Source of the DNA: a virus
Virus record (IMG/VR): IMGVR_UViG_3300019458_000022
Direction: 5' to 3' (one strand)
DNA length: 62,812 bases
A program made the position numbers and the translations under genes. A model generated the notes under the pieces. That model was not told the origin of the DNA, ran no database searches, and saw only the letters and a program-made list of their open reading frames with translations. Below are positions 16,352-62,601 of the stretch, one piece after another. The stretch's first letter is position 1; each line of letters begins with the position of its first letter.

Positions 16352-16687
16352 ATGCTTTATACAAAAATAGCACCAGACCCGACGTATTGGGGAGCTTCCA
16401 CTTATGATCAAGCTACGCGCTTTTCTAAAGCTGTCGAACGCGCACTCCTTCGTGCCGGATTTGAAGCGGCTGGCGTGCAAAGTGAGGGAACGACTGATGA
16501 GCACTGGATTTATGTGGTTGATGATGGGTCGGATGTTGAAGAACAATGGGAATGGTTTGATGTTTGGGCAAGCGGAGGTGCTCGGGCGGTTTATGCTGCG
16601 GCTCGGAAAGTAGTCAAACACGCACACACGGCCAAAACTCGTAGTCTACCACATGGCCGAAAGCGATGGATGCCGAAGGAAGGGTAA
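16352..16687 (+). CDS. hypothetical protein, C-terminal RKRW
   Basis: ORF ends GRKRWMPKEG. Confidence 0.6.
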   Translation: MLYTKIAPDPTYWGASTYDQATRFSKAVERALLRAGFEAAGVQSEGTTDEHWIYVVDDGSDVEEQWEWFDVWASGGARAVYAAARKVVKHAHTAKTRSLPHGRKRWMPKEG

Positions 16688-16747
16688 TGGCCATCAAGCA
16701 CCTTGGCGAGGCGTTCTTTATCGGTTAAGGACGACGAATCCGGAGCC

Positions 16748-17281
16748 ATGAAGGACCGAAGACTTCTCGATCACCAGAAATACTCCGAGTGCCAACTCGT
16801 CGCCGTCGTCAACGCGGCGGCCTACCTCGGAGAACCGCTGGTTGATCCGGATTCCGAGGAATACGAGCGCCTGATCGACCTCGTCGGTGCGCGTCATGGG
16901 AGCGCCATCTCGATCCGGCTGGCTGTCAACTACCTCAGGCTCCGTTGCCACGAGATCGAGCCGCTCAGTCTGGAGAACGTGAAGGAGTTTACGCTGTCCG
17001 GGAAGCCCGTTTCCGTGAGCATCCGGCATCCCGATCCCGGGCTCCATCAGGTCTTGCTCACGGATGGGGATTCTGCGGCCGTCCGGGCTTGGAATCTTAG
17101 AATCAAGGACTGTCCGGACGGCCGCTTGACCTGGCCCCGCCTTGGTGAACTGATGGCCGCGGTCGCGCCCCACCTCCGGAAAGCCGAATGGTACGAGCTT
17201 GACCCCATGAAGGTACGTAAGAAGGATGGTGAAGGAGGAGGAGACCATGCTGTCCGTTCCACGTCTTCGCTACGCCGATGA
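16748..17281 (+). CDS. C39/papain-like peptidase-fold protein
   Basis: Q...EC.LVA..NA...LHQVL. Confidence 0.5.
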   Translation: MKDRRLLDHQKYSECQLVAVVNAAAYLGEPLVDPDSEEYERLIDLVGARHGSAISIRLAVNYLRLRCHEIEPLSLENVKEFTLSGKPVSVSIRHPDPGLHQVLLTDGDSAAVRAWNLRIKDCPDGRLTWPRLGELMAAVAPHLRKAEWYELDPMKVRKKDGEGGGDHAVRSTSSLRR

Positions 17282-17873
17282 GTTCGACCCCCTGACGAGC
17301 GACGAGGTCGTCGATCTCGTCTTCCCGCGCCGTGGTATGCACGCGGGGCGGGAGCGCATCCACCGGATTCCGCTCGTCACGGTCGAGTTCCCGAAGTCGA
17401 AGCGCATGGACGTCCATTCCAAGAAGGGCGTCCTCGGGCTCACCCAGGACCAGGTCGATTGGGTCCTTGGCTGGAAGTGCGCGATGCCGTGGGCCGACAT
17501 CCCGTCGATCGAGTTCCTCTTCTCGGAGGCTCAGCACCTGTGGGGGCATCCGCTTCTCGACCGGTTCGATACGGCCATCCGGGATTCGATGGCCCAGGTC
17601 GCGGTCGAAGCCGTCTACCAGGCGTTCTATCTCCTCTCGGACTTGCTCTACGATCCCAAGACCAAGTACCGCCCCGAGCACGACGATAGCCTCCTCTGGC
17701 ACCGGATGGCCACGTACTACTACTGGGCCGTAAGCGAACAAGTCGGTTCCGGCCTTCCGGGTTTCTTCGCCAAAATGGACAGGATGAACCGCTGGACGTC
17801 GGCCAGGGTCCGGAAGACCTTGAACGAGATCATGGAGCGCGGCCGGATCGTGCCGAAGAGGAAGGCCAGGTAG
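17247..17873 (+). CDS. hypothetical protein
   Basis: Strong SD GGAGGAGG. Confidence 0.7.
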   Translation: MLSVPRLRYADEFDPLTSDEVVDLVFPRRGMHAGRERIHRIPLVTVEFPKSKRMDVHSKKGVLGLTQDQVDWVLGWKCAMPWADIPSIEFLFSEAQHLWGHPLLDRFDTAIRDSMAQVAVEAVYQAFYLLSDLLYDPKTKYRPEHDDSLLWHRMATYYYWAVSEQVGSGLPGFFAKMDRMNRWTSARVRKTLNEIMERGRIVPKRKAR

Positions 17874-17874
17874 C

Positions 17875-18561
17875 TCAGGACTCGCTCTCTTCCCACAGGT
17901 ACCGCTGGCCCATCCGGCGCTCGGCTTCCCGGCGCGCCTCCCTCGCCAGGTGATCGAGGGCGTCCCGAACGAAGTCCGGTAGAAGTTCCGGCCGGTCAAT
18001 AAGGCCGAGTTGCTCGTACGCCCAGAGCAGGCCGCCTTCCAAGGTCTCGTTGTAGCGAAGGAACTGGGTCGTCCGATCGGCCTCGTCCGGGTCCCCTGTC
18101 TCCTGGGAGACCATAAACGACGTGAAGTCGCCGAGCCAGACCTCGTAGTCACTCCGGCCAGTCCACAGGATCGCGGCCCCTTCGATCCGTCCCGGAAGCC
18201 GGAAGTGCGTGAACTCGAAGTCCTCCCCCATGAAACCGTCCATCCCGCGCGTTCTGCCTTCGCCCCATTCGGCGAGTTTTCCGTCCTTGGCCTTCAACCA
18301 GTCGAGCGCGGGTTCGTCGCCCTCGTACGGGAAGTTGTAGAGGCTCGCCGTAAGAGCCCTGTCAAACCACATGTTCTCGCCGATCCAGTTCCGCGAGTGG
18401 AGTCTCACCCAGTAATCGCCGTCCGACGACACCTCGACGCGCATCAGGGGGTTGTCCATCACGATGCTTTCCGGGGTCGCCGTGACGACGATCGTATGGT
18501 TAGCACCCGGAACCTTGACTCCCGGATACCAGCGTTTCCGGATGAGTGGGATTCGCGCCAT
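17875..18561 (-). CDS. hypothetical protein, N-terminal RKRW
   Basis: MARIPLIRKRWYPG. Confidence 0.7.
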   Translation of the reverse strand: MARIPLIRKRWYPGVKVPGANHTIVVTATPESIVMDNPLMRVEVSSDGDYWVRLHSRNWIGENMWFDRALTASLYNFPYEGDEPALDWLKAKDGKLAEWGEGRTRGMDGFMGEDFEFTHFRLPGRIEGAAILWTGRSDYEVWLGDFTSFMVSQETGDPDEADRTTQFLRYNETLEGGLLWAYEQLGLIDRPELLPDFVRDALDHLAREARREAERRMGQRYLWEESES

Positions 18562-18563
18562 CC

Positions 18564-18911
18564 CTAGTCCCACCAGAGCCGGAGCACCGCCCGGCCAGGT
18601 TCCCCGTAGATGGGCTCGAAGTGCTGGTGGTGTCCCAAGCCTTCCCAGACGATCTCCGAAGGCTCCCAGGAACGCGCGAGCGCCAGGAGTTCCGATTCAC
18701 CGCCCGGCGACGGAAGGATGAAGAGCGTGTCGGCGTAGTGCTCCCCGTGCGGGAGCGCCTGAAGGATGCCTCCGGGATTCATGTGGGTCACGAATGCGGC
18801 CTGCCAAAGCCCCCGGTGGCGATCCAGATCCCGAGCGACGCGGCGCCCATCCAGGGCATTCCACCGGACGGTGCCGAGAAGATCCAGTTGGAGCTTCTGG
18901 ACGCGGTTCAT
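18564..18911 (-). CDS. hypothetical protein
   Basis: ORF in a chain; ends LRLWWD. Confidence 0.65.
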   Translation of the reverse strand: MNRVQKLQLDLLGTVRWNALDGRRVARDLDRHRGLWQAAFVTHMNPGGILQALPHGEHYADTLFILPSPGGESELLALARSWEPSEIVWEGLGHHQHFEPIYGEPGRAVLRLWWD

Positions 18912-18916
18912 GACCC

Positions 18917-19357
18917 TCAGAGGACTCGCCGAACGTCCGAGACCTTGAGCCAGAACGGCCACGGCTTCTCGTAGCGCGGCTCCCCGACCAGGAAGGTCAC
19001 GTTCTCGGCGTCCACCTTCACCGCGACCGGAAGCCGTTCGATCTTGTTTTCGGGCGACCGGATGCCGAGCAGGATCGCGCCCGGACCGTGGTCCATGATC
19101 TCCCTCATGCTCGTGAGCGGGGCTTCGGCGATCGCGTCCCGGCCTCGCTCGACGAACACGCGGATACGGAAGAGGTCGCGGTCCCCGTCCGAAAGGAGCG
19201 TGCCCGGGAAAACGATCGGGTCGTCCGTCAGGAAGTACGTCCGGATCTCGACCGGCCCGTGACGCCGGATCGCGCGGGATGCCGACACGCCCACGATCGC
19301 GCCCGCGGCTAGGACCGAACCCGAACCGATGAACGCGCGCCTGCTCAGCGTCTCCAT
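18917..19357 (-). CDS. protein with a twin-arginine-like signal peptide
   Basis: LSRRAFIG followed by a hydrophobic segment. Confidence 0.6.
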   Translation of the reverse strand: METLSRRAFIGSGSVLAAGAIVGVSASRAIRRHGPVEIRTYFLTDDPIVFPGTLLSDGDRDLFRIRVFVERGRDAIAEAPLTSMREIMDHGPGAILLGIRSPENKIERLPVAVKVDAENVTFLVGEPRYEKPWPFWLKVSDVRRVL

Positions 19358-19518
19358 TGCTCCTCTTCTCCTAAAGAAGCACTCTCCGTGGATTCTACCC
19401 CTTCTGGCGCCCGGTTGGAAGCATGGAAGGGATGCCCCGGGCCAGGTACAATCCCAGGATGGCCCGCTACCGGTCCGGAGACTATCGCGCCGAGGTCCCG
19501 GCGCGCTCGAAGAAGTAG

Positions 19519-19815
19519 ATGATCACCTGGAGAAAGCGCTGGGGCGTGGATAATGTGGTTCTGATCGTAGATAGCATGCAGGTTGACCCGGAAACGGGCG
19601 AGAATTACTACTCCGCGGGCGTCTACCATTGGCCCTACCCGAAGGAATACTTCAAGGACTCCGACGTTAGGCAGCCTTGGCTTCGTGACCTGACTCGAAG
19701 GGGAAAAGCGCTGGGACGCAGCCCATTTTCCGGGACTCGCACGGCAGCTTTCCGAGCAGCCGAACGAAAAATAAAGGACCGATTCTCAATCGTGGCCAAG
19801 ATAGCATTATTCTAA
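19519..19815 (+). CDS. hypothetical protein, N-terminal WRKRW
   Basis: MITWRKRWG. Confidence 0.65.
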   Translation: MITWRKRWGVDNVVLIVDSMQVDPETGENYYSAGVYHWPYPKEYFKDSDVRQPWLRDLTRRGKALGRSPFSGTRTAAFRAAERKIKDRFSIVAKIALF

Positions 19816-19819
19816 AGCC

Positions 19820-20218
19820 ATGGTCACCTGGAGAAAGCGCTGGCCGCTGCGCCCGCCTCCCAAGCCGGAGGAACTGGACAAGTTCACCAGGTCGTACATC
19901 GAGACCGCGCTTTGGTCCTCAACCGATGAAGTTGGAGTTCCGCTCGATGAGAATTACGACATCCACGACATCGCCCCCGAAACGCTCCGCAAGATGGCCG
20001 AGGACACGGCTGCCTTCCAGGAATCTAACTGGGACGACATCAAGTTCGCGCTCGAACGGGCCGGTCACGATTTCTGGTTGACCCGAAACAGGCACGGCGC
20101 TGGATTCTGGGATGGAGATTGGCCGAGGGACGTCGGCAGGCGCCTGACCGAGGAATCACATCCCTACGGCACCTTCGACCTCTACGTCGGGGATGACGGA
20201 AAAATCCACGGCCAGTAG
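19820..20218 (+). CDS. conserved phage-type protein (GHDFWLTRNxHGAGFWD), N-terminal WRKRW
   Basis: Motif recalled from phage hypothetical proteins; starts MVTWRKRWP. Confidence 0.7.
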   Translation: MVTWRKRWPLRPPPKPEELDKFTRSYIETALWSSTDEVGVPLDENYDIHDIAPETLRKMAEDTAAFQESNWDDIKFALERAGHDFWLTRNRHGAGFWDGDWPRDVGRRLTEESHPYGTFDLYVGDDGKIHGQ

Positions 20219-20246
20219 AGCATGCATACGCGGTACAATCCCTCTG

Positions 20247-20444: not shown

Positions 20445-20448
20445 GCGT

Positions 20449-21033: not shown

Positions 21034-21044
21034 TGGTCGGACCT

Positions 21045-22060: not shown

Positions 22061-22444
22061 CTACCACCAACCACATTCGCCCTGGATTCGCATCTCCGGA
22101 TAGGGAATCCGGATGAAGATATTCCCGGCCAGGGTGTAATCCAAACGGCCGCCGGTCGGCTCGTAGACGTAGATGTCCATAAGATCGCCTGGGAGGATGT
22201 ACTTCCGGACGTTCGTCAAGGAGTCGAAATCGCCGCCCCACGGAAAGCCTTCGACTTGATCTCCCTGATAGACGCCCGATTTCGATCGCTCCCCGCCTAC
22301 GGCCACGTCGAGCTTCATTCCCCGAACGTCAAGCCGCCGCAGGCATTCAGTGATGAATTCATTGATCTCCCGCCGGGTCATCCCAGGAGGCGGCGCCCAT
22401 CGTTTCCGCCATCTGATCGTGGTCGGCCTGGCCATGGTCGTCAT
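22061..22444 (-). CDS. hypothetical protein, N-terminal WRKRW
   Basis: TIRWRKRWAPPP. Confidence 0.65.
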   Translation of the reverse strand: MTTMARPTTIRWRKRWAPPPGMTRREINEFITECLRRLDVRGMKLDVAVGGERSKSGVYQGDQVEGFPWGGDFDSLTNVRKYILPGDLMDIYVYEPTGGRLDYTLAGNIFIRIPYPEMRIQGECGWW

Positions 22445-22445
22445 T

Positions 22446-22874
22446 CTACGGAAGAGGCCACGGTCCGTAAACCGCCGAGAATCTCCGCGCTTCGATCGAC
22501 GGCCTCGGAATCCAGAAAAGAACGCCCGCGGCATCCCCTTCGTAGAGCAGTCGGGCGTCCCGCGGGAGATCGACCTCGAAACAGGCCGACCCGTACCAGA
22601 ATCTGGGCTCCTCGGCCACCCAGATCGGGGTCCCGCGGCCGTAGATGCGCCTCCAGGACTCTTCGAGGCGCCGGACGGCCGCTTCCGGGATGTCCTTTGG
22701 CGACCGGTAGTCACCGGCGAGCGCGTCGATCATCCGGATTTCCGGCGGGGGAAGCGTCTCGATGTAGAGGTCGAAGAACTCGCGGAATGCCCAGGAAGGG
22801 ACCGTCCAGCGGAAGCCTTCGCTCAGGATGCGTTCCGCTTCCTGGGGGTGCGCGCAGTGGTACCAGCGCGGCAT
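22446..22874 (-). CDS. ADP-ribosyltransferase-like protein
   Basis: WYHC....A..IL.EGF...IWVA....YG.ACFEVDL. Confidence 0.55.
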   Translation of the reverse strand: MPRWYHCAHPQEAERILSEGFRWTVPSWAFREFFDLYIETLPPPEIRMIDALAGDYRSPKDIPEAAVRRLEESWRRIYGRGTPIWVAEEPRFWYGSACFEVDLPRDARLLYEGDAAGVLFWIPRPSIEARRFSAVYGPWPLP

Positions 22875-26383: not shown

Positions 26384-26701
26384 ATGGACGTTCGCGACCC
26401 CTTCAAGGAAAAGGTCAGGAACATCATCCTCGACAGGCTCCAAACGAACCTGAACATGGCCAAGGAGGAGGCCGAGCGGATCTCCGACATCCTTTGGGAG
26501 CCGATCTGGAGGCTCGGGGTCCAGGAGTACATCCACGGCGCGCGGGAATCGTCGCACCTCTACCAGGCGATCAAGAAGGGCCTCAAGGCCGAGGCAGAAA
26601 TCGACGTGATCGAGGAGATCCTCAAGCTGCCGCTCTGCGCTCCGTGCCGGAGGATGATCGAGGCGCCGGAGCTTCCCGGTGAACAGCAGATGCCGCCATG
26701 A
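26384..26701 (+). CDS. hypothetical protein
   Basis: ATGA-coupled to the next gene. Confidence 0.65.
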   Translation: MDVRDPFKEKVRNIILDRLQTNLNMAKEEAERISDILWEPIWRLGVQEYIHGARESSHLYQAIKKGLKAEAEIDVIEEILKLPLCAPCRRMIEAPELPGEQQMPP

Positions 26702-27177
26702 GAACCGCGCTCGAACGCCAGGCTTCCTACTACGCGAAGCTATTCGCCGACTTCATGATCGGGGACGCCCATCTGGCCACCCAGAAAATCTGGCGGCTGC
26801 TCGAACGGGAAACCTTCTTCCTCTTCGCTAAACTGGGCGACAAGGAATACGAAGCCTTGTACGCAAAGCTCGTAGCGGCCATGGAAAGGACGATTTTCGA
26901 CTTCTTCGACCCGCTCGGCATCGGTTCCGGGGATGAAGTGCGCCGCTACGCTTCCGAGCACGCGAAACTCTTCGCGTTTACGCTCATCGGCGACGACGAG
27001 GTCTCAGCCTTCGTGGCTTTCGGAAATCTCGCCGAGAAGATGTACCTCGGTCTTCCGAAGCCCTTGATGGAGAGCTTCGACGAGCACCATGACCGGTTGA
27101 GGGAGGCGCTTTACGAAACAATCGTAGGCGTCGTCCATGGCGCCGGTTACGGTGGACGCAAGAGGTGGAAGCCGTGA
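26698..27177 (+). CDS. hypothetical protein, C-terminal RKRW
   Basis: Ends GGRKRWKP. Confidence 0.65.
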   Translation: MRTALERQASYYAKLFADFMIGDAHLATQKIWRLLERETFFLFAKLGDKEYEALYAKLVAAMERTIFDFFDPLGIGSGDEVRRYASEHAKLFAFTLIGDDEVSAFVAFGNLAEKMYLGLPKPLMESFDEHHDRLREALYETIVGVVHGAGYGGRKRWKP

Positions 27178-27198: not shown

Positions 27199-27801
27199 TC
27201 AGGACGCCGTAACCTTCTTCAGGTGCTTCCCGGCCCAGTCCCACCTCTTCCGGAACCGCTCGATCACGCGCTTACGGATCTCGGGAAAGGAACCGCGCTG
27301 GGCGATCCGTTCATAGAGATCGGACCTCGGCTTTCCGGAGAGCCCTTCGGATGCGCCGATCGACTCCAGGTACTCATAGGCTTCGGCCCTCCAGAGGAGC
27401 ATGGAAAGGGCCAGGATGTCGGGCGACGGGTTCCGGACGGCTTTCCGGTGCGGGACAAGCCGGACGGCCCTTGGGCCCGTCTCGGCGACCGTGATTCCCC
27501 ACCATCCGGGCACGAGCTTTGAGGCGCGTTCCAGGTGGTTTCGGGTCAGGACGATGCTCACCCGGTCGCAGACGCGGCTGTAGACCTCGGCCTGGTCAGG
27601 GAGCCTCCCGAGGTCGTCGGTCTCGCCCTTGATCTCGTAGCCGTGCAGGTAGCGGCTGGCGACCAGGAGGTCGATCCGCGTTTCCCCGTGCAGAAGGCCG
27701 ACCTCGTCCAGGACGAGCGCGGTGTCCACGCGACGCCGCAGGATCGACTTGCGCAGGACCGAGCGGATCTTCTGGTCGAGCAGCCGCTTAGGCTTCGGCA
27801 C
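27199..27801 (-). CDS. sce7726-family PD-(D/E)XK protein, C-terminal RKRW
   Basis: DEVG...RIDL....LHGYEIK.E.D.L.RL..Q..VY. Confidence 0.75.
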   Translation of the reverse strand: MPKPKRLLDQKIRSVLRKSILRRRVDTALVLDEVGLLHGETRIDLLVASRYLHGYEIKGETDDLGRLPDQAEVYSRVCDRVSIVLTRNHLERASKLVPGWWGITVAETGPRAVRLVPHRKAVRNPSPDILALSMLLWRAEAYEYLESIGASEGLSGKPRSDLYERIAQRGSFPEIRKRVIERFRKRWDWAGKHLKKVTAS

Positions 27802-28109
27802 GCAGGCGCTCCATCGCCGGAGGCCAGCAGGTCCGGCAGTAGTTCTGGTTGCAAAAGACGCGGCCGATGTCCTTCCGCGGGAATCGCCGCTTGCAGCCGT
27901 TGCAGGTGTACTGCCTTCTCCTCTTCCTGGTCACCGGTCACTCCTCGATCCTGAGCCGAACAGCGCGTTTTGGACGCCATCGCTTCGAGCGCGGCTTGAG
28001 CGGGACGATCCAGACGTGGGCATAGTAGTCCTCGTCGCCCTCGTGCTTCGGAGGACCCCCGAGAACGTCGATGCAGTTCCTGGGCTCGCCGCTCACCAGA
28101 GTATTCCAT

Positions 28110-29278: not shown

Positions 29279-29809
29279 TCATCTTCCCGCCTCCTCTTCT
29301 AGATCCTCCTCGGTGAGGACATAAAGCGACTCTCCCGGAATCCGCCGTCCGACCGTGATGAGCCCCCAGCCGTAGGCGTGGTCCGGGAACATGAAACCGG
29401 ACATCTTCTCGACGTCCTCCAGACGGATCTCGATGACGACGCCTCCGAAGTCGAGCGCCCCTTTCACCTCTTCCGAGACCCAGGTCATGTATGCGTTCGG
29501 ATACTGGTCCTTGAACGCCGCAAGAACCCCGTCGTCCCAGCCCATCGGGATGCGCATGTAGGGCGGCCTCCCGAAACGCTCCATCACCGCTTCCTGGTGC
29601 GCGTCGTCGAGAAGGCAGAAGAGATACCAGGTGTGGTGCTCGTAGCCGCCCAAGGCCATCCACTTCGAGACGTGTTCTCCAAGCCCGTCTTTCTTGATCG
29701 AGGCGATCTGCCGCGGAGACGTCCCGTGGTAGGCGATGAAGCCTATGATGTCGGTGAGTCTGGAGAGCGGCCAGACGTCGGAGGCGCAGTCGGGATGCAC
29801 TAGAACCAC
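29279..29809 (-). CDS. ADP-ribosyltransferase-like protein
   Basis: AYHGTS...SIKKDGL...ALDFGGVVIEI. Confidence 0.55.
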   Translation of the reverse strand: MVLVHPDCASDVWPLSRLTDIIGFIAYHGTSPRQIASIKKDGLGEHVSKWMALGGYEHHTWYLFCLLDDAHQEAVMERFGRPPYMRIPMGWDDGVLAAFKDQYPNAYMTWVSEEVKGALDFGGVVIEIRLEDVEKMSGFMFPDHAYGWGLITVGRRIPGESLYVLTEEDLEEEAGR

Positions 29810-30060
29810 CTCTTCCGGAACATCCGGAACTCCTCGGGATGGTTCTCGCGGACCTCGTCCAGGAATTCGCGGAACTCGTAGACGAGTTCGCCGACCGGAG
29901 TCATATCGAAACTCGCGACGCGACCCGCTTTTTCGGCCTCTCCGAGGAAACCGCGGACTCTCTGGACTTCTTCCCGGTCCATGTTCACGAAGTAGTTCGT
30001 CGTGTACCTTCTCCCTTCGAAGGTCCAGGTGACATCGACGAAGTAGACCATCGGTTCCAT
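29800..30060 (-). CDS. hypothetical protein, C-terminal RKRW
   Basis: Ends FRKRWF. Confidence 0.65.
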   Translation of the reverse strand: MEPMVYFVDVTWTFEGRRYTTNYFVNMDREEVQRVRGFLGEAEKAGRVASFDMTPVGELVYEFREFLDEVRENHPEEFRMFRKRWF

Positions 30061-30727: not shown

Positions 30728-31207
30728 TCATCTTCCGAGAAATCTCAGGACCACGAGCGCATCCTGGGGCGCCTCCTTCGGATCTTCCTCGATCATATGG
30801 AAGTCCATGCGGTCGCCGACCGCCTGCTCGACCCAGGCGATCCACTGGTCGCGAAGGAATCGGCCGGTGTCCGGCGCCATGCCGATCGGCACCTGGAAGC
30901 TCACGAGAACGCGCCCTTGGCGTTCCCAATCGGGCTGCGCGCGCCCCCATCTCTTCCTCGATCCCATGACCGGAACGTGGCGATCCCTCATCACTCCGGT
31001 GACGGTAAATACCCGGCCAGGATCGACCTCGCGCACGGCCGGGGCGATCTTCTTCCAAAGCTCGACGATACTCTGTTCTTCTGGAGTCAGGTTCTTGACC
31101 ACCCCCCGCTGGTGCGCGTAACCGAGGAGGAACCTCTCAAACCCCGCGTCGGTGTCAGTCGTGATCATCGCGCCTTCCGGACTTACGATAAATTCGTAAA
31201 GGGACAC
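30728..31207 (-). CDS. hypothetical protein, internal RKRW
   Basis: MGSRKRWG; SD AAGGA. Confidence 0.6.
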   Translation of the reverse strand: MSLYEFIVSPEGAMITTDTDAGFERFLLGYAHQRGVVKNLTPEEQSIVELWKKIAPAVREVDPGRVFTVTGVMRDRHVPVMGSRKRWGRAQPDWERQGRVLVSFQVPIGMAPDTGRFLRDQWIAWVEQAVGDRMDFHMIEEDPKEAPQDALVVLRFLGR

Positions 31208-32961: not shown

Positions 32962-33372
32962 TCAAGCCTCCGGCCACCAACGCTTTCGGGCAAGCACTTC
33001 CTCGTACTCCTTGAAATTCTCACCCGTTGTCAGACTCTCCCAGAGATCCCACGAGCCGTCCTGTTCTTCTTCCAGATCGTAGAAGATCCGGACGGTCCCA
33101 TATGGACCACGTCCAAAAAGCCCTGAGTCCGCAAGCCTATCCTCGAAACGCTCACGCCAAAGAGCGGCTTCTCTCGGAGTTCTTACGTACCTCCTGAAGA
33201 CGATGGTCTGCTCTTGCAGTCCCTCCACCTCACGATGCGACGCTTCGTCGTCGTCGATGCCATACTCAACTTCGTCCCAGAGTCCAGGTCCGAGTACAGA
33301 TGAGATCCGACGATCGAAAGCCGCCGGGTCGCCTACACCGCTCACTCCGTAGATGATCCGCAACCTGCCCAT
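32962..33372 (-). CDS. hypothetical protein, C-terminal RKRW
   Basis: Ends LARKRWWPEA. Confidence 0.65.
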   Translation of the reverse strand: MGRLRIIYGVSGVGDPAAFDRRISSVLGPGLWDEVEYGIDDDEASHREVEGLQEQTIVFRRYVRTPREAALWRERFEDRLADSGLFGRGPYGTVRIFYDLEEEQDGSWDLWESLTTGENFKEYEEVLARKRWWPEA

Positions 33373-33378
33373 GCCCTG

Positions 33379-33690
33379 CTACTCCCGGAGCGTTTCCATG
33401 TAGTGCTCGGCCAATTCGATCCAGTCGATTTCCTCGAACGCGGAGTTGAGGAGGGACGACCACGGACCCTCAAGTTCCGGCATTTCCTCCTCGAACCACT
33501 CCTTGAGCGCGTCGGCCGTGGCAAGCTTCGCCTCGGTGATGCCGCTCTCATCCCAGCGTTTCCTAGCGCCGCGGACTCCCCGAATGGCCTCCTGGACCGT
33601 GGAAAGTGCAGTCTCGTAGTAGTTCCGGTCGTTGTCGATGAAGAGGGCCATCGAGAACGTCTCGTAGTTCTTCCAACCCTGGTAGCTCAT
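33379..33690 (-). CDS. conserved phage-type acidic protein (YxGWxNYET), internal RKRW
   Basis: MSYQGWKNYET...IDND...IDW.ELAEH. Confidence 0.7.
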   Translation of the reverse strand: MSYQGWKNYETFSMALFIDNDRNYYETALSTVQEAIRGVRGARKRWDESGITEAKLATADALKEWFEEEMPELEGPWSSLLNSAFEEIDWIELAEHYMETLRE

Positions 33691-34481: not shown

Positions 34482-34919
34482 CTATTCTCCCACCTCCGAC
34501 ACCCATTCCTCGCTGCCTCCATGATAGGCGAGGTAGGCGATCGCCGCGTCCTTCACGGCTTCCCAGATGTCGTGGCGCCCCATCTTGATCAGGTCTTCAA
34601 GGCTCACCCCAATGTCCCCGGAATACGATTGGCGGTGCTTGGCTTTTGGGTCCATGACGTCCCTGAGATCGACTGAGGCCCCTATCTTGAGGACCGGATT
34701 CTCCTTCCAGTCCTCCAGATAAGCCTCGTCGTCCGGGGGTTCCGTCATGTCCCACTGCACGATCGTGACTTCCCCGCCGGACAGCTTGATGCCGAGACCG
34801 TGTTCCGGGTCCTTGTCCTGGTCCTCCCCGTAATAGGAGAACTCCAGGTCCGAGATGAACTCGTCCATGTCCTCGCGCGGGATCTCTCCCTCGGGCCACC
34901 AGCGCTTCTTCCAGATCAC
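34482..34919 (-). CDS. hypothetical protein, N-terminal WKKRWW
   Basis: MIWKKRWWPEG. Confidence 0.65.
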   Translation of the reverse strand: MIWKKRWWPEGEIPREDMDEFISDLEFSYYGEDQDKDPEHGLGIKLSGGEVTIVQWDMTEPPDDEAYLEDWKENPVLKIGASVDLRDVMDPKAKHRQSYSGDIGVSLEDLIKMGRHDIWEAVKDAAIAYLAYHGGSEEWVSEVGE

Positions 34920-35555
34920 TTAGAGGAAACTCCCGTCTTCGTCGAACTCGTATTCGTTCGCGATGATGTTTTCGGTAATATCCTGGTCGCTCTCCCTGTA
35001 GTCGATGTTCTCGTAACCGGATTTTTCCAGTCGCTTCGAAACGTCCTTCACCTGATCCTGGAGATGGGCCATTAGCTCTCGCGCCATCCGTTCGATCGCG
35101 ACCGGCCCGAGGCGGATGGGCCAGCGTTTCCTGCCGCCGACACGGGGTTCCCCGTAAGTGTCCACCTCCGCGGTGACGACCATGGTGTTCCAGTGGTCAT
35201 ACATGTGGAATGCCTGCCGTTTTTCGATCGCGATCTCAATCCTGGCTTCATCGTTCTCGATCGCGGTAATGATCGGCTCGAATTTTGTGAGCGAGTTCTT
35301 CTGGATATAGTCTGCAAGGTCCACCTTCCCATAGAAGGCGACGCCGTCCCCAGAGCTATAGTCCAGGCGCCAGCGAATGTCCTCGGTCGGTAGGCCGAGC
35401 GCCTCCAGTTCCTCAGCGAAGAATTCACTGAGCATCTTGCTGTCTGCCTCGTCCCATGCCCAGCCTCGATCGCGATACTCCCGGATGGCCCTCTCCTTGG
35501 CTTCCGGAGAGAGTTCCGCGAACGTGTAGATCTCGATTTCTTCCTTTCTCGGCAT
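34920..35555 (-). CDS. conserved phage/ICE acidic protein, internal RKRW
   Basis: YTFAELSPEAKERAI...SGDGVAF...IIANEYEFDEDG. Confidence 0.7.
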   Translation of the reverse strand: MPRKEEIEIYTFAELSPEAKERAIREYRDRGWAWDEADSKMLSEFFAEELEALGLPTEDIRWRLDYSSGDGVAFYGKVDLADYIQKNSLTKFEPIITAIENDEARIEIAIEKRQAFHMYDHWNTMVVTAEVDTYGEPRVGGRKRWPIRLGPVAIERMARELMAHLQDQVKDVSKRLEKSGYENIDYRESDQDITENIIANEYEFDEDGSFL

Positions 35556-35809
35556 CAGGACGGGCGCCAGCGCTTGCCGCGACCGGTTCTCCGTTTGTGG
35601 ATTTTCCAGGCCCCCTGCTCGGTCGTCCATGTCCATTCTTCAAGGCGACGTTTCCAGCTATCCTCCTTCTCCACGTCGGCGACCATGGCGCCGGTGAGAC
35701 CGTGGATTCCGGTCTCTCCCTGGATTCCGGTCGCACCCTGAAGACCGGTGGCGCCTTGAGGTCCCGGTCCGATCGGAGGCGTGTACAGGAAGTCGCTCCT
35801 TCTCACCAT
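35555..35809 (-). CDS. short collagen-like repeat protein
   Basis: GPQGATGLQGATGIQGETGIHGLTGA; ends GKRWRPS. Confidence 0.55.
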   Translation of the reverse strand: MVRRSDFLYTPPIGPGPQGATGLQGATGIQGETGIHGLTGAMVADVEKEDSWKRRLEEWTWTTEQGAWKIHKRRTGRGKRWRPS

Positions 35810-39415: not shown

Positions 39416-40594
39416 TTACCTCGTCCTCAGGAGATGGCTGCCTCCGAAGAACTGGTCGATGTATCCCATCGACCGCCCCATCGGGCTCACAAGCCCGGCG
39501 ACCTGGAGGCGCAGGCCCTTGGCGACGGCATGGGGCGGAGGACCCGGAGGGCGTGGAGGCGCGGTGATGAAGGGAGGAGGCGTCTCCCCTTCCTCGGTCA
39601 TGATCGAGATGATGAGCGCGTTCTGCTGCGCTTCCGACATCGCCAGGAACTTCTCGGGCGTGAGGCCGTGTTCGTGGAGGTTTTCGTTGTAATCGACCAC
39701 GAACTCCTGGATGAACTCCTGGCGCTCCTCCAGTTGCTCCTGGTGCGCCTCCAGGGACTCCTCATAGGCTTCCTCGGCCGCTTCCTCGGCCGGGCTGACC
39801 GCGGGCGCGGCCGGGGCCGCGGGCGGTGGCGGAGCGGCTGGTGGCGCCGCGGGCGGCTTGGGCGAGATGTACGCGGTCGGGATCGGCTGTGGGGAGACCA
39901 TGACCCGGCCCATCCCGTGGAAATAGGCCGCGTCGATCGCGCCCATCATGCGACCGCGGGAGTTGTTGCCGTAGATGTTCCCGACCTCGCGCATGAGTCC
40001 CTTCACCTGGGGCGGCGGCTGCGGTACCGGCTTCACGGTGCCGGGTGGAGGCGCCACGATGAAGGGCGGAATCGGGTCCTTATACTCGCTCATGAGCGCG
40101 ATGATGACCGCGTTTTGTTCCGGCTCGGTCATCGCCAGGAACTGGTCCTTCGTGATCCCGCGGTCCGTGAGATCTTCGCCGTACTCCTGGAGAAATTCCT
40201 GGATGAACTCCGCGCGCATTTCGCGTAGCTCCTCCAGTTGCTCGGCGGTGACGCCGGGAGGGGCGCCCGGAGGAGGCGGAGCCTCGGGCTCCTCGTCCTT
40301 CGCTTCCGGAGGAGGCGCGCCTGGAGGGGGAGGCGCGCCGGGCGCTCCAGGAGCGCCCGGAACGCGGCCCATGACGTCCTCTTCCGGCATCTCCTCATCC
40401 TCTTCGTCTTCCTCCTCGCCGGGGAGGAGCCCCGGGGCTCCCGGGGCCGCCTTCGCTGCCAGATCGACGGCTCGCTTCCGGAGGAAGAAGTAGGCACCGG
40501 TTCCGATCGCGGCGACCCCTGCGCCCATGGCGATCCATCCCCAGGTGGGGATGCCCTTGGACTTCCCGGCGCCCTTTCCGTTCGTCTTGCTCAT
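39416..40594 (-). CDS. membrane-anchored Pro/Glu-rich protein with a duplicated domain
   Basis: N-terminal TM helix; two copies of EFIQEF...G.T...FLAM.E..QNA.II. Confidence 0.75.
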   Translation of the reverse strand: MSKTNGKGAGKSKGIPTWGWIAMGAGVAAIGTGAYFFLRKRAVDLAAKAAPGAPGLLPGEEEDEEDEEMPEEDVMGRVPGAPGAPGAPPPPGAPPPEAKDEEPEAPPPPGAPPGVTAEQLEELREMRAEFIQEFLQEYGEDLTDRGITKDQFLAMTEPEQNAVIIALMSEYKDPIPPFIVAPPPGTVKPVPQPPPQVKGLMREVGNIYGNNSRGRMMGAIDAAYFHGMGRVMVSPQPIPTAYISPKPPAAPPAAPPPPAAPAAPAVSPAEEAAEEAYEESLEAHQEQLEERQEFIQEFVVDYNENLHEHGLTPEKFLAMSEAQQNALIISIMTEEGETPPPFITAPPRPPGPPPHAVAKGLRLQVAGLVSPMGRSMGYIDQFFGGSHLLRTR

Positions 40595-42230: not shown

Positions 42231-43055
42231 TCATGCGCCCTCCTCGATGAGCGTCTTTGCGGTGAAATCCAGGAGTTCACGGAGGATCTCGCCCTTCCGC
42301 TCTTCTCGAACGATTTCCCAGTGTTTCCGCCACTTGGCGCGGTTGGCCCAATCCACGTTTTCGTGAATCTTCTGGAGCGCCAGAAGGACGTCGTAGACGA
42401 AGTCGCCCGCGATCCCGCCAAGGTCCGTCCGGAGCGCCTCATCGACCTCCTTGGCCGATGGAGGCCCATTCTCAGAATGCTCTGAGAGCCAGCTTAGAAG
42501 CTGCCTGGCTGCCGGGACCTCATTCCACGAGAGGACGATGTAGCGGTCGTACCAGCCGGGTTTACGGTGGTAGATCTTCGAGAACGGTTTCCCGACGACC
42601 TGGGCGGCTACTTCATCGGCATCCATGCCGGTCGCGTCGAGGAAGCCCTCCCAGAGGAAACCGAGGTGGTTCCCGTAACGGTTGTCCTGGGCGAACTCGA
42701 CAGCCCGCTCGATGTCTCGGTCGGTGGGCGTCCCCGCTTCCTCGTACATGTACTGCATCGCATCAACGAACGCCTGGCGGGTCGATTCGAGCGTCGGATC
42801 TCCCTTTTTCGCGGCCTCGGCCGCGCGGCCGAGATCCTCCTGCGTGAGGACTCCCCACCGTTTCCTGGCCATCCGACCGCGGGCGGGCTTGACGATCTCT
42901 GCGAGATAGTCCATGACGTCGTCGGCCTTGAGCGATGCCCAGTCGTTCCAAACGGCATCCGCGACGAGTTCCCCGAATCTCTCCTCGTACGACCAGGGCT
43001 TCCAACCCTCTTCCTCGACGAGGTTGACCCTGATCGTCGGCAGGCGTTTGGCCAT
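42231..43055 (-). CDS. hypothetical protein, internal RKRW
   Basis: RMARKRWG. Confidence 0.7.
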   Translation of the reverse strand: MAKRLPTIRVNLVEEEGWKPWSYEERFGELVADAVWNDWASLKADDVMDYLAEIVKPARGRMARKRWGVLTQEDLGRAAEAAKKGDPTLESTRQAFVDAMQYMYEEAGTPTDRDIERAVEFAQDNRYGNHLGFLWEGFLDATGMDADEVAAQVVGKPFSKIYHRKPGWYDRYIVLSWNEVPAARQLLSWLSEHSENGPPSAKEVDEALRTDLGGIAGDFVYDVLLALQKIHENVDWANRAKWRKHWEIVREERKGEILRELLDFTAKTLIEEGA

Positions 43056-44174: not shown

Positions 44175-44933
44175 CTATCCGACCCTGAGGTCCAGGTAGT
44201 CCGCGAGCGCGTCGAGCGTCTTCGCCGCGTGGGCGACCTTCGCCTTGAAGTCGGGGTTGTCGATCTTCTTCCTCATGTCGTCGAAGAACTTCGCGACCTC
44301 CCGGAACTGGGCGACGCCGTCCCCGAAGCTGTCCTTGAACGAGGCCAGCCCATGGAGCGCCTGCTGGAGGTCCCCGTTCTTCCCGATCGCTTTTTCGATC
44401 TCGGTAAGCGCGTGCTCGACCTTGCTGAAGTCGCGTTCCTTGAAGGCCGAGACGATCTCCTTCATGTCGGCGAAGACCTGCTTCACGTCCTCGATGAAGG
44501 GCTTGAGATCCTTGGCGTCCGTGATCAGGCCCTTGAGTTCCAGGATCATCGGCTTGAGTTCCCTATCGGCCCATTCCTTGGCGTCCTGCATCCCCTTCTG
44601 CATCTTGTAGGTGAGCCGGAGGCCCTCGATGTTGAGGAGCTTCATCGGCCAGACGAAGACGAGCGTGAAGATGCACGCCCAGAGGAGGCCACCGATGATG
44701 ACGACCGAGCCGTTCATGGTCGTCAGCCGGTGGATGCCCTCGACCGAAAGCACCCGCCAGATGAAGTAGGTCTCGATGACGATGAAGTTGAGCGCGAAGA
44801 CGAAGAGGATGGTCAGGGTCTTCTTGACCGGGACCTTGGAAAGGATGGCCTCGACCTGGCGGTCTTCCTCGGTCTTCGTTTCCTGGTCCTGGACGATCTT
44901 CTTCTCTTCCATCGTTTCCGTCTCCTCTTCCAA
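44175..44933 (-). CDS. two-TM coiled-coil membrane protein
   Basis: Two hydrophobic helices and an amphipathic heptad region. Confidence 0.7.
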   Translation of the reverse strand: MEEETETMEEKKIVQDQETKTEEDRQVEAILSKVPVKKTLTILFVFALNFIVIETYFIWRVLSVEGIHRLTTMNGSVVIIGGLLWACIFTLVFVWPMKLLNIEGLRLTYKMQKGMQDAKEWADRELKPMILELKGLITDAKDLKPFIEDVKQVFADMKEIVSAFKERDFSKVEHALTEIEKAIGKNGDLQQALHGLASFKDSFGDGVAQFREVAKFFDDMRKKIDNPDFKAKVAHAAKTLDALADYLDLRVG

Positions 44934-58074: not shown

Positions 58075-58095
58075 GTTTCGCCGCTTTTCCTCGCG

Positions 58096-58566: not shown

Positions 58567-58576
58567 GGCTCGTTTT

Positions 58577-59203
58577 CTAAGAAACCTCCACAGTGGGAAC
58601 GTGGCCGCGAAGACGCGCGTAGGACACGAGGAGCCTGCCGGGTCCTGAGACTTCCGCGTAATACTCCAGCCCGTCGTCCCGGAAATGCCAGCCTTCGAAG
58701 CCCTCCTCGAACCCGCGCGCCAGTTCGGGGAGCCTTCCGTCAAGGTCCGCCAGCACCGCATCGACCACGGCCTCGTCGTACCAGGCCGGAAAATCGACGG
58801 TGATGCCCTCATCCTCCAGGTCGCCCACGCCGGAAACCGTGACCACGAACTCGTCCGGCTGGCGGAGCAGCTTCTGGGCCTTCTTGTTGATGACGGTCTT
58901 GGCGATGAGAGCGAAGTCCGACTCCGGCTCGTTCTTGATCCAGACGGACGGGATCGAGATGTCGAGCGACCGCGACGTCACCGTGGCCTGGAAGGAGGCG
59001 ACGCGCTTCCGCTTCCACCGGCCGTAGAGGACGGGCAGCGCCTCGGTCATCTTCTGGATGACGAGATCCTCGGCGATCCCGCGCTGCTCCGGGAGCGCCC
59101 TCCAGGCCGCCTCCCGGGTGAGGACGAGACGGACCACCTTCCGGTCGGGCATGACCACTTCCGCGATCACGCTCCCGCCGGGTTTGATCGGGACATCCGC
59201 CAT
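58577..59203 (-). CDS. hypothetical protein
   Basis: MADVPIK..., strong GC3 bias. Confidence 0.65.
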   Translation of the reverse strand: MADVPIKPGGSVIAEVVMPDRKVVRLVLTREAAWRALPEQRGIAEDLVIQKMTEALPVLYGRWKRKRVASFQATVTSRSLDISIPSVWIKNEPESDFALIAKTVINKKAQKLLRQPDEFVVTVSGVGDLEDEGITVDFPAWYDEAVVDAVLADLDGRLPELARGFEEGFEGWHFRDDGLEYYAEVSGPGRLLVSYARLRGHVPTVEVS

Positions 59204-59249
59204 CCGTGACTCCTCGCGACTCAAAACGTGTGCCTTGTGAGTCACTGTA

Positions 59250-60173
59250 TCAGGTTTCCTCCGCGGACACAAGCATCGCCTGGACGCATTTGCCTTCCGG
59301 GTGGGGCTGGAACCTGGCGATCCTCTTGCCCTTGAAATCGGAGAATTTGAAGCAGGAGACCATCGGGTACTTCGTCTCAAGCTTCCAAAGGTCGATGAGC
59401 CTGACCTCCTTCCCCTTGGCGGGCAGGTACTTCCAGTTCTGGTAATAGGGCACCGTTTGGAGGTTCAGGCGCTCCCGGAACTCCTTCATCTCTTCCGGGC
59501 TGAAATGAGACTCCCCCATGAGTTCGAGGTAGAACCGGAGATCCCCGAGCACCGTGAGCGACCGGATCTGGCTCGGCATGATCCGGCCGATATGGGCGCA
59601 GCAGCCGTACTCCTCCAGCGCGTCCTGCCAGGTGACCTTGACGCGCTCGCTCAGGCCGGTCGGTCCTCCGGAAACGTCGATCCTGGCGTCCGGATAGCGC
59701 ATGTCCACGCCGATCCGGATCATGCCGTCCGCGGCCACCCGGAGCTTCTTCGTGGCCTCGTGGATGCGCTGGATCACCCGGCGCCCGTTGTGGACGTAGT
59801 CCTCGTCGGGGGCCAGGTTCTCGACCCGGACCTCGACCTCAAGGACGATGGGCGCGACCGACCAGGTCTTGTACCATTCGGGGTCCGCGCCCATGGCCGC
59901 GTTGAACGCGAAGAAGTAGTGCCAGAGGTCGGTGAGATAGACCCGGTCCGGGATCGACTCGATCGGCCGCTGGTATCCGAACTGGGTCGGGATCGTCTCC
60001 GCGTGCTTCCAGTTGGAGTTTTCGGTCGCCTTCCGCGGAAGAATGCCCTTCTCCTGGATCTCGGCCAGGTACTTGGTCGTCGTCCCGTGGAAGAGGAGGA
60101 TCTTCCCGTCCTTTGGAACGCCGATCCCGGTCTCCTTCGAATCGGACGCGAAGCCCGTGCGCCGGAAGTCCAC
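59250..60173 (-). CDS. ADP-ribosyltransferase/KptA-fold protein
   Basis: LFHGT....L..I...GI.PR...VYLT...A...IVLEV...L.PDED. Confidence 0.65.
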   Translation of the reverse strand: MDFRRTGFASDSKETGIGVPKDGKILLFHGTTTKYLAEIQEKGILPRKATENSNWKHAETIPTQFGYQRPIESIPDRVYLTDLWHYFFAFNAAMGADPEWYKTWSVAPIVLEVEVRVENLAPDEDYVHNGRRVIQRIHEATKKLRVAADGMIRIGVDMRYPDARIDVSGGPTGLSERVKVTWQDALEEYGCCAHIGRIMPSQIRSLTVLGDLRFYLELMGESHFSPEEMKEFRERLNLQTVPYYQNWKYLPAKGKEVRLIDLWKLETKYPMVSCFKFSDFKGKRIARFQPHPEGKCVQAMLVSAEET

Positions 60174-60178
60174 GGCGG

Positions 60179-60853
60179 CTACTCCTTCCCCTTGGGCGCC
60201 GGGAGGAGCGCCTGGGCGCCCCTCTGCGCGATCGAGAGGAGCATCTCGTCGAGCTTCCCCTGGTCGAGGAGCGCGTTCACCCGCTCGTTCAGGCTCTTGA
60301 TGAGGAGCGAGATCGTCCGGAGCGCGCTCCATCGTTCCGGCGTGTAGGGGAGTAGCAGGCTGTCCTTGGCCCGGCGAGGCTCGACCGCGGCCACGACCTC
60401 GCTCACGAACCCGAAGGGCTGTCCGCACGGCCGTCCCGGCTGGCCCTTGACCTCATCGCTTTCGGCCGTGTTGAGATGCGTGTCCCCGGCCTTCGCGAAC
60501 TCCTTCCAGAGGTAGGTACCGTCCTTCCTCTTGGCGCGGTAGTAGCGCTTGTAGTTCAGGTTGATCGTCTCCTCGCTCGCGTGCCGGTAGCCCCCGATGG
60601 ACTCGGAGCCCCGGATGATGATGACGGCCTCCCAGTCGAGGACGGCGTTGTCCCGGAGCCAGGCGAGCGTCTCGTCGCGCACCTGCTGGAGGTCGTTCCC
60701 GCGGAAGACCGCAAGCGTCCGGTAATCGCTCTCGTGATCGGGGATCTCCACCCGGAATTCGCCGTTTTCCTTGTTGACGGCGATCGTGTACTTCGTCCCG
60801 TCTTCCCACACGATCTCGTCGATCTTCTTGTAGCCGCGTTCCATGCGCGCCAT
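60179..60853 (-). CDS. hypothetical protein
   Basis: SD GGAGG. Confidence 0.7.
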   Translation of the reverse strand: MARMERGYKKIDEIVWEDGTKYTIAVNKENGEFRVEIPDHESDYRTLAVFRGNDLQQVRDETLAWLRDNAVLDWEAVIIIRGSESIGGYRHASEETINLNYKRYYRAKRKDGTYLWKEFAKAGDTHLNTAESDEVKGQPGRPCGQPFGFVSEVVAAVEPRRAKDSLLLPYTPERWSALRTISLLIKSLNERVNALLDQGKLDEMLLSIAQRGAQALLPAPKGKE

Positions 60854-61806
60854 CGTGCGACCTCCGATTCACTGTGTACAGGTTCCGGCTTCCCCGTGCG
60901 CGAATTCGCTACCGTAGACCCCCTCGCCGGTCGCGCGCAATCTCTCGTTCCTCCTCGCAAAGCGCAAAGGCCATCGCCAGGGACTTGAGGAAGCCGCGCT
61001 CGCTCTCGTCTCCGCGGTCGATCGGGGCGTGCTCCCACCAGTGGAAGCCGTTCAACTCGATGTCCCTGGTTGGAGCGACGTACCGGTCGATCGGCGCGAA
61101 GGGCAGCGCCCTCTCGACGTCCTCGTGGTCGTCGATCGCCTCGGCGAGCTTCCAGATCTCGGACTCCAGCTTCCGAATCTTGAATGCCAGATCCCGGATC
61201 GACCGCACCTTTTTGACGAGATCCGGGTGCTTTCCGAGGAACCGGAGCCACTTCGCCTGCCGAAGCTCCTGGTCGGTCTTCTTCACGGCCTGACGACCTC
61301 CAGCCCGATATCGCGCCAGATGCGCTTGACTTCCTCGTACTTCACGAACTCGCTCTTCTTCCGGATCGCGATCTCGGGTAGGACACTGCCTCCGGGGTCT
61401 CGGCCGATCGAGAAGACGGGCCCGAACTCGCCCATGTCGTCCCTGCGGATGGCCAGCTTCTCCTTGAGCGCGAGGCCCAGGGCGACTCGGGACGTCCCGA
61501 GGTCGATCAAATCGGAGCGTCCGCCGCAGGGACCCGAAAGCCCCACGGTCCCGAGCGGCGTCCAGAGCGCGTAGCACGGGTTCCCGTAGTAGAACTCAAG
61601 GCCGATCCCGCCGTTCGCCTCGATCTGCTCGTGGCACGGATTGGGCCCGCTCAGGACCGGGAGCCCGCGGAGCAGCTTCTCGCGCCGTGGGCCGTCCTCC
61701 TCGACGGCCTGCCACATCGTCTCGGAGATGAAGATCGCGATCGCCCGGCAGCGCTCGAAGTACGCCCGCAGTTCCTCGATCGAGTTCACGGCGATCCTCC
61801 TTGAGA

Positions 61807-62601
61807 TCAGGCTACCTGGACACGTCCGGTGCCGCCGCAGGTCTCGCACATCCGGGGCCTGAAGCAGTGCCAGTTCTCCTTCGTCGTGTTCGGAAGCGAG
61901 AAGTAGATGCTCCGGACCGGCTCCCGAAGATGCTCGACGGGCACGCAGTCGGCGCTGCATGCGATGTTGAAGCCCACCGAATGGCCGCTTCTTGCCTCGA
62001 TCCGGGTGCCGTCGCAGTCCCGGCAGAGCGTCGGATCGTGGACCCACCGGTAGTGCTTGCACAACTTCTCCGGGTTCGTTCGGCAGGGCAGGTACTCGAC
62101 GTCCTCCCAGTCCGGCTCCTGGCCGTCGAGCGCGAGGGTGCCGCAGTCGAACCAGTTGGCCTTCCCGCCGGTCGCGAAGAGGACCGTCATCGTCCGCGCG
62201 GACTCGTCGAGGACGTACCCCCATTCGCGGTCGCTGCACGGCATGCTTTTCGTGATCGTCCAGCCTTCCTCGTTCCGGTCGCCGTGACAGAAGCACTGCG
62301 CGCGCACGATCCGCTCCCGGATGCCGCCCCAGCGCTTGCGTACCATGCCGCCGCGCTTGAGCAGATGACGATCCTCCGTGAAGCCGGGCTGGATCGAGAG
62401 GTCGTGTCCCAGGATGCTGTCCCACCCGGCGGGATGTTCGTCGATCAGGATCTTGAGCATCGCCCGGAGATCGCCCTTGAAGTTCTCCCGGAGTTGGCGC
62501 CAGAGTTCGGCGCCCAGGCCGGTCGGGTACCCGTCGCAGTGGTGGTACCGTCCCGACCATCCGCGGGCGGTCTTCCGGGCGATGACGGCTCTCGTGCTCA
62601 C
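61807..62601 (-). CDS. conserved phage-type protein (YxHxDGYP) with Zn fingers, internal RKRW
   Basis: MSTRAVI...YHHCDGYP.GLG; SD GAGGAGG. Confidence 0.7.
   Translation of the reverse strand: MSTRAVIARKTARGWSGRYHHCDGYPTGLGAELWRQLRENFKGDLRAMLKILIDEHPAGWDSILGHDLSIQPGFTEDRHLLKRGGMVRKRWGGIRERIVRAQCFCHGDRNEEGWTITKSMPCSDREWGYVLDESARTMTVLFATGGKANWFDCGTLALDGQEPDWEDVEYLPCRTNPEKLCKHYRWVHDPTLCRDCDGTRIEARSGHSVGFNIACSADCVPVEHLREPVRSIYFSLPNTTKENWHCFRPRMCETCGGTGRVQVA

Follow-up and report, generated by a model that had tools for sequence, protein, structure and literature searches.

RKRW-tagged genes in the window

We analyzed a 62,812-nt stretch of viral DNA (IMG/VR record IMGVR_UViG_3300019458_000022; hereafter the window) in which the tetrapeptide Arg-Lys-Arg-Trp (RKRW) recurs at the ends or within loops of otherwise unrelated proteins. 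The window, with a GC content of ~62%, makes up the left end (63 kb) of a metagenome contig known in versions of 168,645 and 175,429 bp and was read out to 90 kb of its ~175 kb. Genes were mapped by a model trained on the window itself, and this map was matched against independent database gene calls over 16.7–37.2 kb and above 50 kb (50–63 kb) only; the predicted proteome amounts to 17,900 amino acids (aa). An earlier sequence-only reading had reported 14 RKRW copies plus a KKRW at 34899, and all of these coordinates proved exact; the SKRW and GKRW variants that it had located approximately map to 27977 and 35567, respectively.

Copies close to N-termini (residues 4–13) are those at 18529, 19832, and 34899, and probably those at 22397 and 19531. 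On the minus strand, positions 18529–18540 encode residues 8–11 of an independently called 228-aa protein (17875–18561), and positions 34899–34910 encode the KKRW form as residues 4–7 of a called 145-aa protein (34482–34919), for which matching KKRWWP N-termini occur in the related contigs L002 and L010. The plus-strand copy at 19832–19843 provides residues 5–8 of a 132-aa phrog_1915 protein (19820–20218) and precedes a Pro-rich linker. The motif likewise takes residues 5–8 (19531–19542, plus strand) of a possible 98-aa gene (19519–19815), which is uncertain, being uncalled and with a coding score of about zero, and which matches 19820–20218 almost perfectly over its first 24 nt. The minus-strand copy at 22397–22408 lies near the N-terminus of a gene that ends at 22061 and probably starts at ATG 22435 or 22444, and is thus located upstream of the database start (22318). 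A TAGAAT −10 box at 22448–22443 directly precedes the ATG of this gene, within a promoter-like TTTACG-17-TAGAAT arrangement (22443–22471, minus strand) that ends a few bases before the start codon. Such proximity suggests that this tagged gene may be transcribed into a leaderless messenger.

The C-terminal copies, all within the last 17 residues, are those at 27157, 27241, 29806, 32977, and 35567, and possibly that at 27977. Two of them are convergent: positions 27157–27168 (plus strand) encode residues 154–157 of the 159-aa product of the called gene 26698–27177, and positions 27241–27252 (minus strand) encode residues 184–187 of a called 200-aa sce7726/P4-cII-like protein (27199–27801). Identical codons encode both tags and make up a 9-bp inverted repeat (AAGAGGTGG/CCACCTCTT) on either side of the 21-bp intergenic gap; the surrounding 111-nt stretch folds with z = −2.3, and the repeat may be either a bidirectional terminator or a coincidence. 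The remaining copies are on the minus strand and occupy residues 82–85 of 86 in the called gene 29800–30060 (29806–29817), where the codons AAGAGGTGG also sit 6–7 nt ahead of the GTG with which the next gene begins, and residues 129–132 of 136 in the called gene 32962–33372 (32977–32988). GKRW (35567–35578) is found near the C-terminus of an 84-aa product (35555–35809) that is called in the contig records L003 and L119. SKRW (27977–27988) belongs to a possible 52-aa gene (27938–28096), which remains uncertain: it has a good coding score on the window-trained map, but in the database the called gene runs the other way.

Internal copies, again on the minus strand, are those at 30947, 33553, 35121, 42855, and 62329. 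The first (30947–30958) is inside a called 159-aa protein (30728–31207), and the second (33553–33564) spans residues 43–46 of a called 103-aa DUF7249-like protein (33379–33690), whose short homolog in L002 (303–608) reads Met, three residues, and then RKRW at the aligned place. Positions 35121–35132 fall in an insertion of ~18 residues in a 211-aa PHROG 5162 protein (34920–35555). The copy at 42855–42866 encodes residues 64–67 of a 274-aa protein (42231–43055) and is invariant in six homologs, ~50% identical, that use different codons, whereas that at 62329–62340 encodes residues 88–91 of a 264-aa Cys-rich protein (61807–62601) that is called in L106. We also considered that internal tags might follow internal start codons, which was dismissed because the Met preceding the tag is Tyr in one ortholog.

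This survey upholds the earlier proposal that the motif sits mostly at extreme termini or in loop insertions, and its list of tagged genes in part. Eleven RKRW copies are in confidently coding frames, that is, in independently called genes, as are the KKRW at 34899 and the GKRW at 35567. By contrast, the copy at 16658–16669 (plus strand) is probably not translated, since the open reading frame (ORF) that contains it (16352–16687) has a GC content at third codon positions of 0.38 and a coding score of −31; the copies at 19531 and 27977 are in the uncalled genes described above.

RKRW is enriched in the coding frames of unrelated genes

To quantify this recurrence, we compared the observed counts with several chance expectations. 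Across all six frames, the window contains 17 RKRW copies, against 1.17 expected from amino-acid composition and a mean of 1.42 (largest 6) in Markov-3 simulations. Similarly, the DNA pattern MGNAARMGNTGG was found 17 times, compared with 1.19 ± 1.14 (largest 5) in dinucleotide-preserving shuffles. The predicted proteome contains 13 copies, whereas 0.19 would be expected, a figure in line with the earlier estimate of well under one chance occurrence in a proteome of this size. The comparison with shuffled proteins that had been envisaged at that stage gave a concordant result: 2000 within-protein shuffles yielded a mean of 0.21 copies and a maximum of 3.

Three additional RKRW copies, at 44909, 48269, and 57974, are in the wrong frames, and the excess therefore belongs to the coding frames. 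A motif equally common in non-coding frames would have spoken against a peptide tag, but all five such frames together hold 3–4 copies. The tag is also unevenly distributed along the DNA. Thirteen of 15 copies lie between 16.6 and 35.2 kb, where they mark roughly 12 of the ~42 called genes, and there is none at 1–16 kb of the element. The 27 kb of contig that follow the window likewise have none on the coding strand.

All-against-all BLASTP of the tagged proteins aligned the motif alone, consistently with the claim that they share no other similarity, and this rules out hidden paralogy. A weak exception is the likeness between the N-terminal 22 residues of the gene ending at 22061 and of 34482–34919 (E = 4e-4). 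The carriers are mostly acidic, small, and soluble, and none contains a 19-residue segment with a mean hydropathy above 1.6. Accordingly, a signal peptide or membrane anchor was rejected for want of a hydrophobic segment, and membrane insertion is unlikely because no transmembrane segment accompanies the tag.

Selection acts on the peptide and on its residue order

Arg and Lys codons within the motif match their usage in the remainder of these genes (p = 0.18, 0.42, and 0.15), with five different Arg codons at the first position, six at the third, and both Lys codons represented. Ser codons of the AGY type were found at none of the 34 MGN positions, although the MGN pattern admits them, and orthologs in related contigs retain the peptide with different codons. 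Together, these data bear out the earlier view, drawn from the variable codons, that it is the protein and not the DNA that is under selection.

The converse explanation is that a signal in DNA or RNA, such as a ribosome-binding site, a promoter element, or a recombination or nuclease site, reads as RKRW by chance, or that a functionless start-plus-tag cassette has been spread by recombination. This would be in keeping with the Shine-Dalgarno-like sequence AAGAGGTGG that three copies use, one of them 6–7 nt ahead of the next start, with the inverted repeat formed by the 27157 and 27241 copies, and with the near identity of genes 19519 and 19820 over their first 24 nt. However, codon diversity at background frequencies, the lack of AGY codons, the restriction of the enrichment to coding frames, and the retention of the peptide with other codons in orthologs all oppose it, and no sigma-54 promoter consensus was found in the window. 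We consider such an origin highly improbable. A DNA-level motif as such is ruled out because the codons are diverse, the motif keeps to coding frames, and AGY is absent, and an origin as a Shine-Dalgarno by-product fits one or two copies at most.

Selection extends to the order of the residues. RRRW, RRKW, RKKW, KRRW, KRKW, RKRF, and RKRY have no copies in the predicted proteome, and KKRW has one. In three ortholog sets, the KRW columns are invariant against mean column identities of 0.60, 0.63, and 0.35, and the first tag position scores 0.39–1.0, with R, S, or G. Overall, S, G, K, or E can replace Arg at the first position, whereas Lys, the second Arg, and Trp do not vary. The tag is usually followed by Gly, x-Pro, or Pro.

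This strict order bears on a further explanation, namely that the tag is a self-contained physicochemical anchor whose basic residues and Trp stick to DNA, RNA, polyanions, or an anionic membrane without any dedicated reader. The peptide is indeed cationic and aromatic, the proteins that carry it are mostly acidic, and the sole matches for RKRW in the literature are Arg/Trp-rich membrane-active antimicrobial peptides. Nonetheless, a generic electrostatic anchor would tolerate other orders, while a single order is enriched here; apart from the one KKRW, other arrangements of three basic residues and Trp are absent, as are the Phe and Tyr forms. Besides, four residues alone give little affinity. 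We therefore regard this anchor as improbable.

The tag is an addition to existing protein families

Homolog alignments support, for four families, the proposal that the tag is a lineage-specific addition to otherwise conserved proteins. Among 25 aligned homologs of the PHROG 5162 protein (34920–35555), the ~18-residue insertion with [RGS]KRWP is present in the seven nearest only (58–65% identical) and absent from the 18 more distant. The related contig L001 encodes a paralog (36% identical) in which an RKRW of its own, differently flanked, occupies the equivalent site. In the AlphaFold2 (AF2) model of the window protein, with a mean predicted local distance difference test (pLDDT) score of 88, the sole segment below 50 comprises residues 138–145, that is, the tag, between a strand and a helix.

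The 228-aa protein (17875–18561) tells a similar story at the N-terminus. A word-based homolog search retrieved only the protein itself, and a profile search of 1.84 billion representatives yielded 76 relatives. The seven nearest members of the family, the window's own included, carry [RS]KRW.PG within their first ten residues (P0073–P0078 are orthologs), and the remaining more than 60 distant homologs start at a conserved PQIPWA without the tag. Here, residues 1–9 score below 50 in an AF2 model with a mean pLDDT of 90.5. In these models, the tags lie in low-confidence, probably disordered segments.

In the phrog_1915 protein (19820–20218), the PHROG match begins at residue 16, phage matches among those listed of 284 records begin at query residue 20–22, and RKRW is missing from three aligned phage homologs. 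The sce7726-type protein (27199–27801; NCBIfam NF033832, 1.3e-38) represents a different route, since its phage homologs read [KS].R..W at the place of the tag, and RKRW thus arose there by few substitutions. Regarding function, searches of PDB folds with the AF2 models of 34920–35555 and 17875–18561 found none, and Pfam scans of long homologs found nothing.

RKRW marks one clade of elements

We then asked how far the motif extends among relatives. Short related contigs are enriched, with all copies on the coding strand: L001 has six copies in 11.7 kb, L010 four in 4.7 kb, and L002 three plus two variants in 11 kb. Conversely, no RKRW was found in loci of more distant phages with a PHROG 5162 gene, among them five of 56–62% GC (L006, L007, L088, L091, and L092; 12.6–20.6 kb). 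A 341-kb relative, L111 (JGI 3300031949, Ga0214473_10000007), has no RKRW in 20.7 kb, and its two orthologous tag sites read EKRW (the 42855 site) and SKRW. This relative displays the same SOD-like/M48/NIF gene order as the window. IMG/VR scans with three queries found no relative, and megablast against phages gave no match.

A 6.8-Mb Planctomycetia genome, which may not be that of the host, contains 207 hits to the pattern against 192 in a reversed control, at about a tenth of the window density. The absence of enrichment in this one genome led us to discard RKRW as a general feature of planctomycete proteomes. As far as the compared sequences reach, these data show that the enrichment is limited to a single clade and a single region. 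Even with no mechanism attached, the tag is a clean marker for this clade of elements.

Gene content of the element

At its start, the window has a CRISPR array with eight 36-nt repeats spaced 71–73 nt (78–630), adjoined by a gene for a 566-aa Cas12f1-like TNB-domain protein (806–2506, minus strand); together, they suggest that the element carries a compact type V-like CRISPR locus. An enrichment of the peptides RWHC/EQCQ in six frames turned out to be merely the CRISPR repeat. Further genes encode a tyrosine integrase and an IS605 OrfB/TnpB protein, and matches to Pfam or PHROG include an M48 peptidase, a glycosyltransferase, a SOD_Fe_C-like protein, a NIF phosphatase, a DNA polymerase beta thumb domain, a NUDIX protein, and the sce7726/P4-cII-like protein. 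The majority of the remaining window proteins have no match in either database.

The tRNA scan revealed a gene with anticodon CUA, of the amber suppressor type (13616–13689, minus strand), and ARAGORN a tRNA-like gene with only a two-base anticodon (12998–13075, minus strand). The former raised the prospect of an alternative genetic code. However, where an in-frame stop separates abutting ORFs, it simply ends one gene before the start of another, so the standard code applies, and TAG terminates genes in the window in the usual way despite tRNA(CUA). Within 8414–9616, the small genes 8414–8614 and 9117–9254 have identical peptide ends, and genes 8611–8742 and 9251–9616 share another identical end, which points to a putative duplicated cassette.

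The minus-strand gene at 39416–40594 encodes a 392-aa protein that combines an acidic block with a long low-complexity stretch rich in Pro, Gly, and Ala, in which PGAP and APPP are repeated. L001 and L002 have conserved versions of it, next to a 270-aa protein that is itself well conserved and for which an ESM Atlas search found nothing. The 392-aa protein resembles a scaffold or hub and is a candidate partner for the basic tag. Beyond the window, the contig encodes two AcrVA2-like proteins at ~76–89 kb (L107, 3716–4903; L108, 1084–2247), a GNAT acetyltransferase, an HD_4 protein, two HATPase_c proteins, and a YukD-type ubiquitin-like fusion (L106, 429–1142).

Two more specific explanations concern what acts on the tag. 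In one of them, the tag is the recognition site of an enzyme, either a modified acceptor Lys, Arg, or Trp (for instance, by acylation or by linkage to the ubiquitin-like protein of the element) or a cleavage site or degron for a protease such as the M48 peptidase or a host AAA+ protease. The element does encode this peptidase, the acetyltransferase, both HATPase_c proteins, and the ubiquitin-like fusion; exposed ends and loops are the usual place of acceptor motifs and degrons, and the invariance of Lys, the second Arg, and Trp next to a loose first position is what such a site would display. Gly, Ala, or Ser often precedes the tag, yet so do Trp, Phe, Ile, or Pro. Moreover, no enzyme gene adjoins the tagged genes or has been shown to co-occur with them, the first 90 kb yielded neither a radical-SAM enzyme nor a dedicated protease, and trimming 2–8 end residues has no obvious use. 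An enzyme site thus appears unlikely.

The other explanation is a capsid-loading or co-ejection signal: the tag would bind a component of the head interior, so that early-acting accessory or anti-defense proteins are packed and injected with the DNA. This was the main idea of the earlier reading, beside docking on a scaffold or membrane and protease processing, and it would be a special case of one reader shared by all tagged proteins. Precedents are the capsid-targeting sequence of T4, the Dar proteins of P1, and the cargo peptides of encapsulins. Small, acidic, and soluble carriers among accessory genes would suit this role, as would the AcrVA2-like genes further along the contig. However, no recognizable head gene lies beside the tagged genes, no protease site accompanies the tag, and its position at either end or in loops is unlike that of known capsid-targeting peptides. 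We rate this signal, too, as unlikely.

A probable short linear motif with a proposed common reader

On balance, we consider it probable that (R)KRW is a short linear peptide tag read by a single common partner in a docking or sorting sense. A fixed-order core, purifying selection, placement in predicted disorder, unrelated carriers, and restriction to one clade constitute the signature of a short linear motif, and RKRW has the generic traits of this class, that is, a short core in disordered or exposed segments that is conserved among orthologs amid drifting flanks. In this reading, the tag is specific to one clade of large phage-like elements and was grafted onto at least a dozen accessory proteins, at a flexible N- or C-terminus or in a surface loop. 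These carriers are unrelated, soluble, and mostly acidic, and their genes are mainly in a mosaic region at 16.6–35.2 kb. One common partner, whose existence we infer, would recognize the exact residue order through a protein pocket encoded by the element or the host, and the tag would thereby gather its carriers at one place or pass them as a group to one machine.

Several observations weigh against this proposal. No reader was found, and the domain scans delivered no candidate. The 42855 copy is in a conserved stretch of the 274-aa family and could serve that protein's own fold or function, and in the sce7726 protein two or three changes to an existing K.R..W sufficed to create the motif. In the 341-kb relative, only EKRW/SKRW is retained, with no clear enrichment over 20.7 kb, and the system may accordingly be narrow or decaying. 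Finally, four residues are few for specific recognition.

As to the purpose of such a tag, our leading guess is docking or sorting, for instance, incorporation into the particle or recruitment to DNA that is entering or being replicated; our second choice is a degron, cleavage site, or modification site. A more ambitious version would be a so far undescribed virus-encoded sorting system, in which a four-residue address at either terminus or in a loop delivers unrelated accessory or anti-defense proteins to the particle for co-injection or to a replication compartment, and new cargo joins by gaining the tag. We advance it tentatively, as a possibility with the balance clearly tilted against it. 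If one reader serves all carriers, the tag would define a functional group among genes without annotation and offer a handle for finding the reader and for learning how large phages organize their accessory proteins. A position-independent four-residue address, gained by small insertions or few substitutions, would also show how mobile elements enroll captured genes.

Comparison with known systems

The capsid-targeting sequence of T4 internal proteins IPI–III comprises ~10 residues, is strictly N-terminal, and is followed by a prohead-protease site, and the corresponding late genes lie beside head genes. RKRW resembles it in being a short portable address peptide common to otherwise unrelated phage proteins, but has only four residues, occurs at either end or in loops, and belongs to genes of an accessory region. 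Thus, five or six copies are C-terminal and five internal rather than all being at the extreme N-terminus, and the residues that follow (Gly, x-Pro, and others) vary and form no common site for a prohead protease. Cargo-loading peptides of encapsulins are longer and hydrophobic with Gly (GSL-type), and the cargo genes sit beside the shell gene. They share with RKRW the layout of a terminal disordered peptide on unrelated cargo proteins, which in their case docks onto one shell protein. However, an adjacent HK97-fold shell gene is lacking here: the window proteins that were scanned (Pfam, PHROGs) matched no family of capsids or encapsulins.

Hub motifs and terminal degrons, such as clamp-binding peptides and the ClpX N- and C-motifs, among them the basic MuA tail, are similar in that 4–6 residues, some of them basic, on flexible ends or loops of unrelated proteins fit one pocket. 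We know of none with the sequence RKRW. Their hubs, moreover, are universal cellular proteins, whereas RKRW is enriched in one clade of elements and not in the planctomycete genome. Other basic signals differ more plainly: the basic n-region followed by a hydrophobic h-region of twin-arginine and Sec signal peptides is not seen, nor is the Arg-Gly-Arg-Pro core of AT-hooks, the core here being Lys-Arg-Trp with no Gly-Arg-Pro.

Import into the phage nucleus offers a parallel in that a large phage selectively sorts its own proteins. The published work on this import reported no conserved linear signal sequence, with folded surfaces being recognized instead; in contrast, the present element has a clear linear motif and gives no sign of a compartment. 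A full-text literature search for RKRW returned only synthetic antimicrobial peptides and irrelevant strings, with no description of a shared tag. Taken together, these comparisons show that the general kind to which RKRW would belong is already known: peptides common to unrelated viral proteins that serve them as an address or for docking. What is new in RKRW is its sequence, its brevity, and its working at either end of a protein or in loops.

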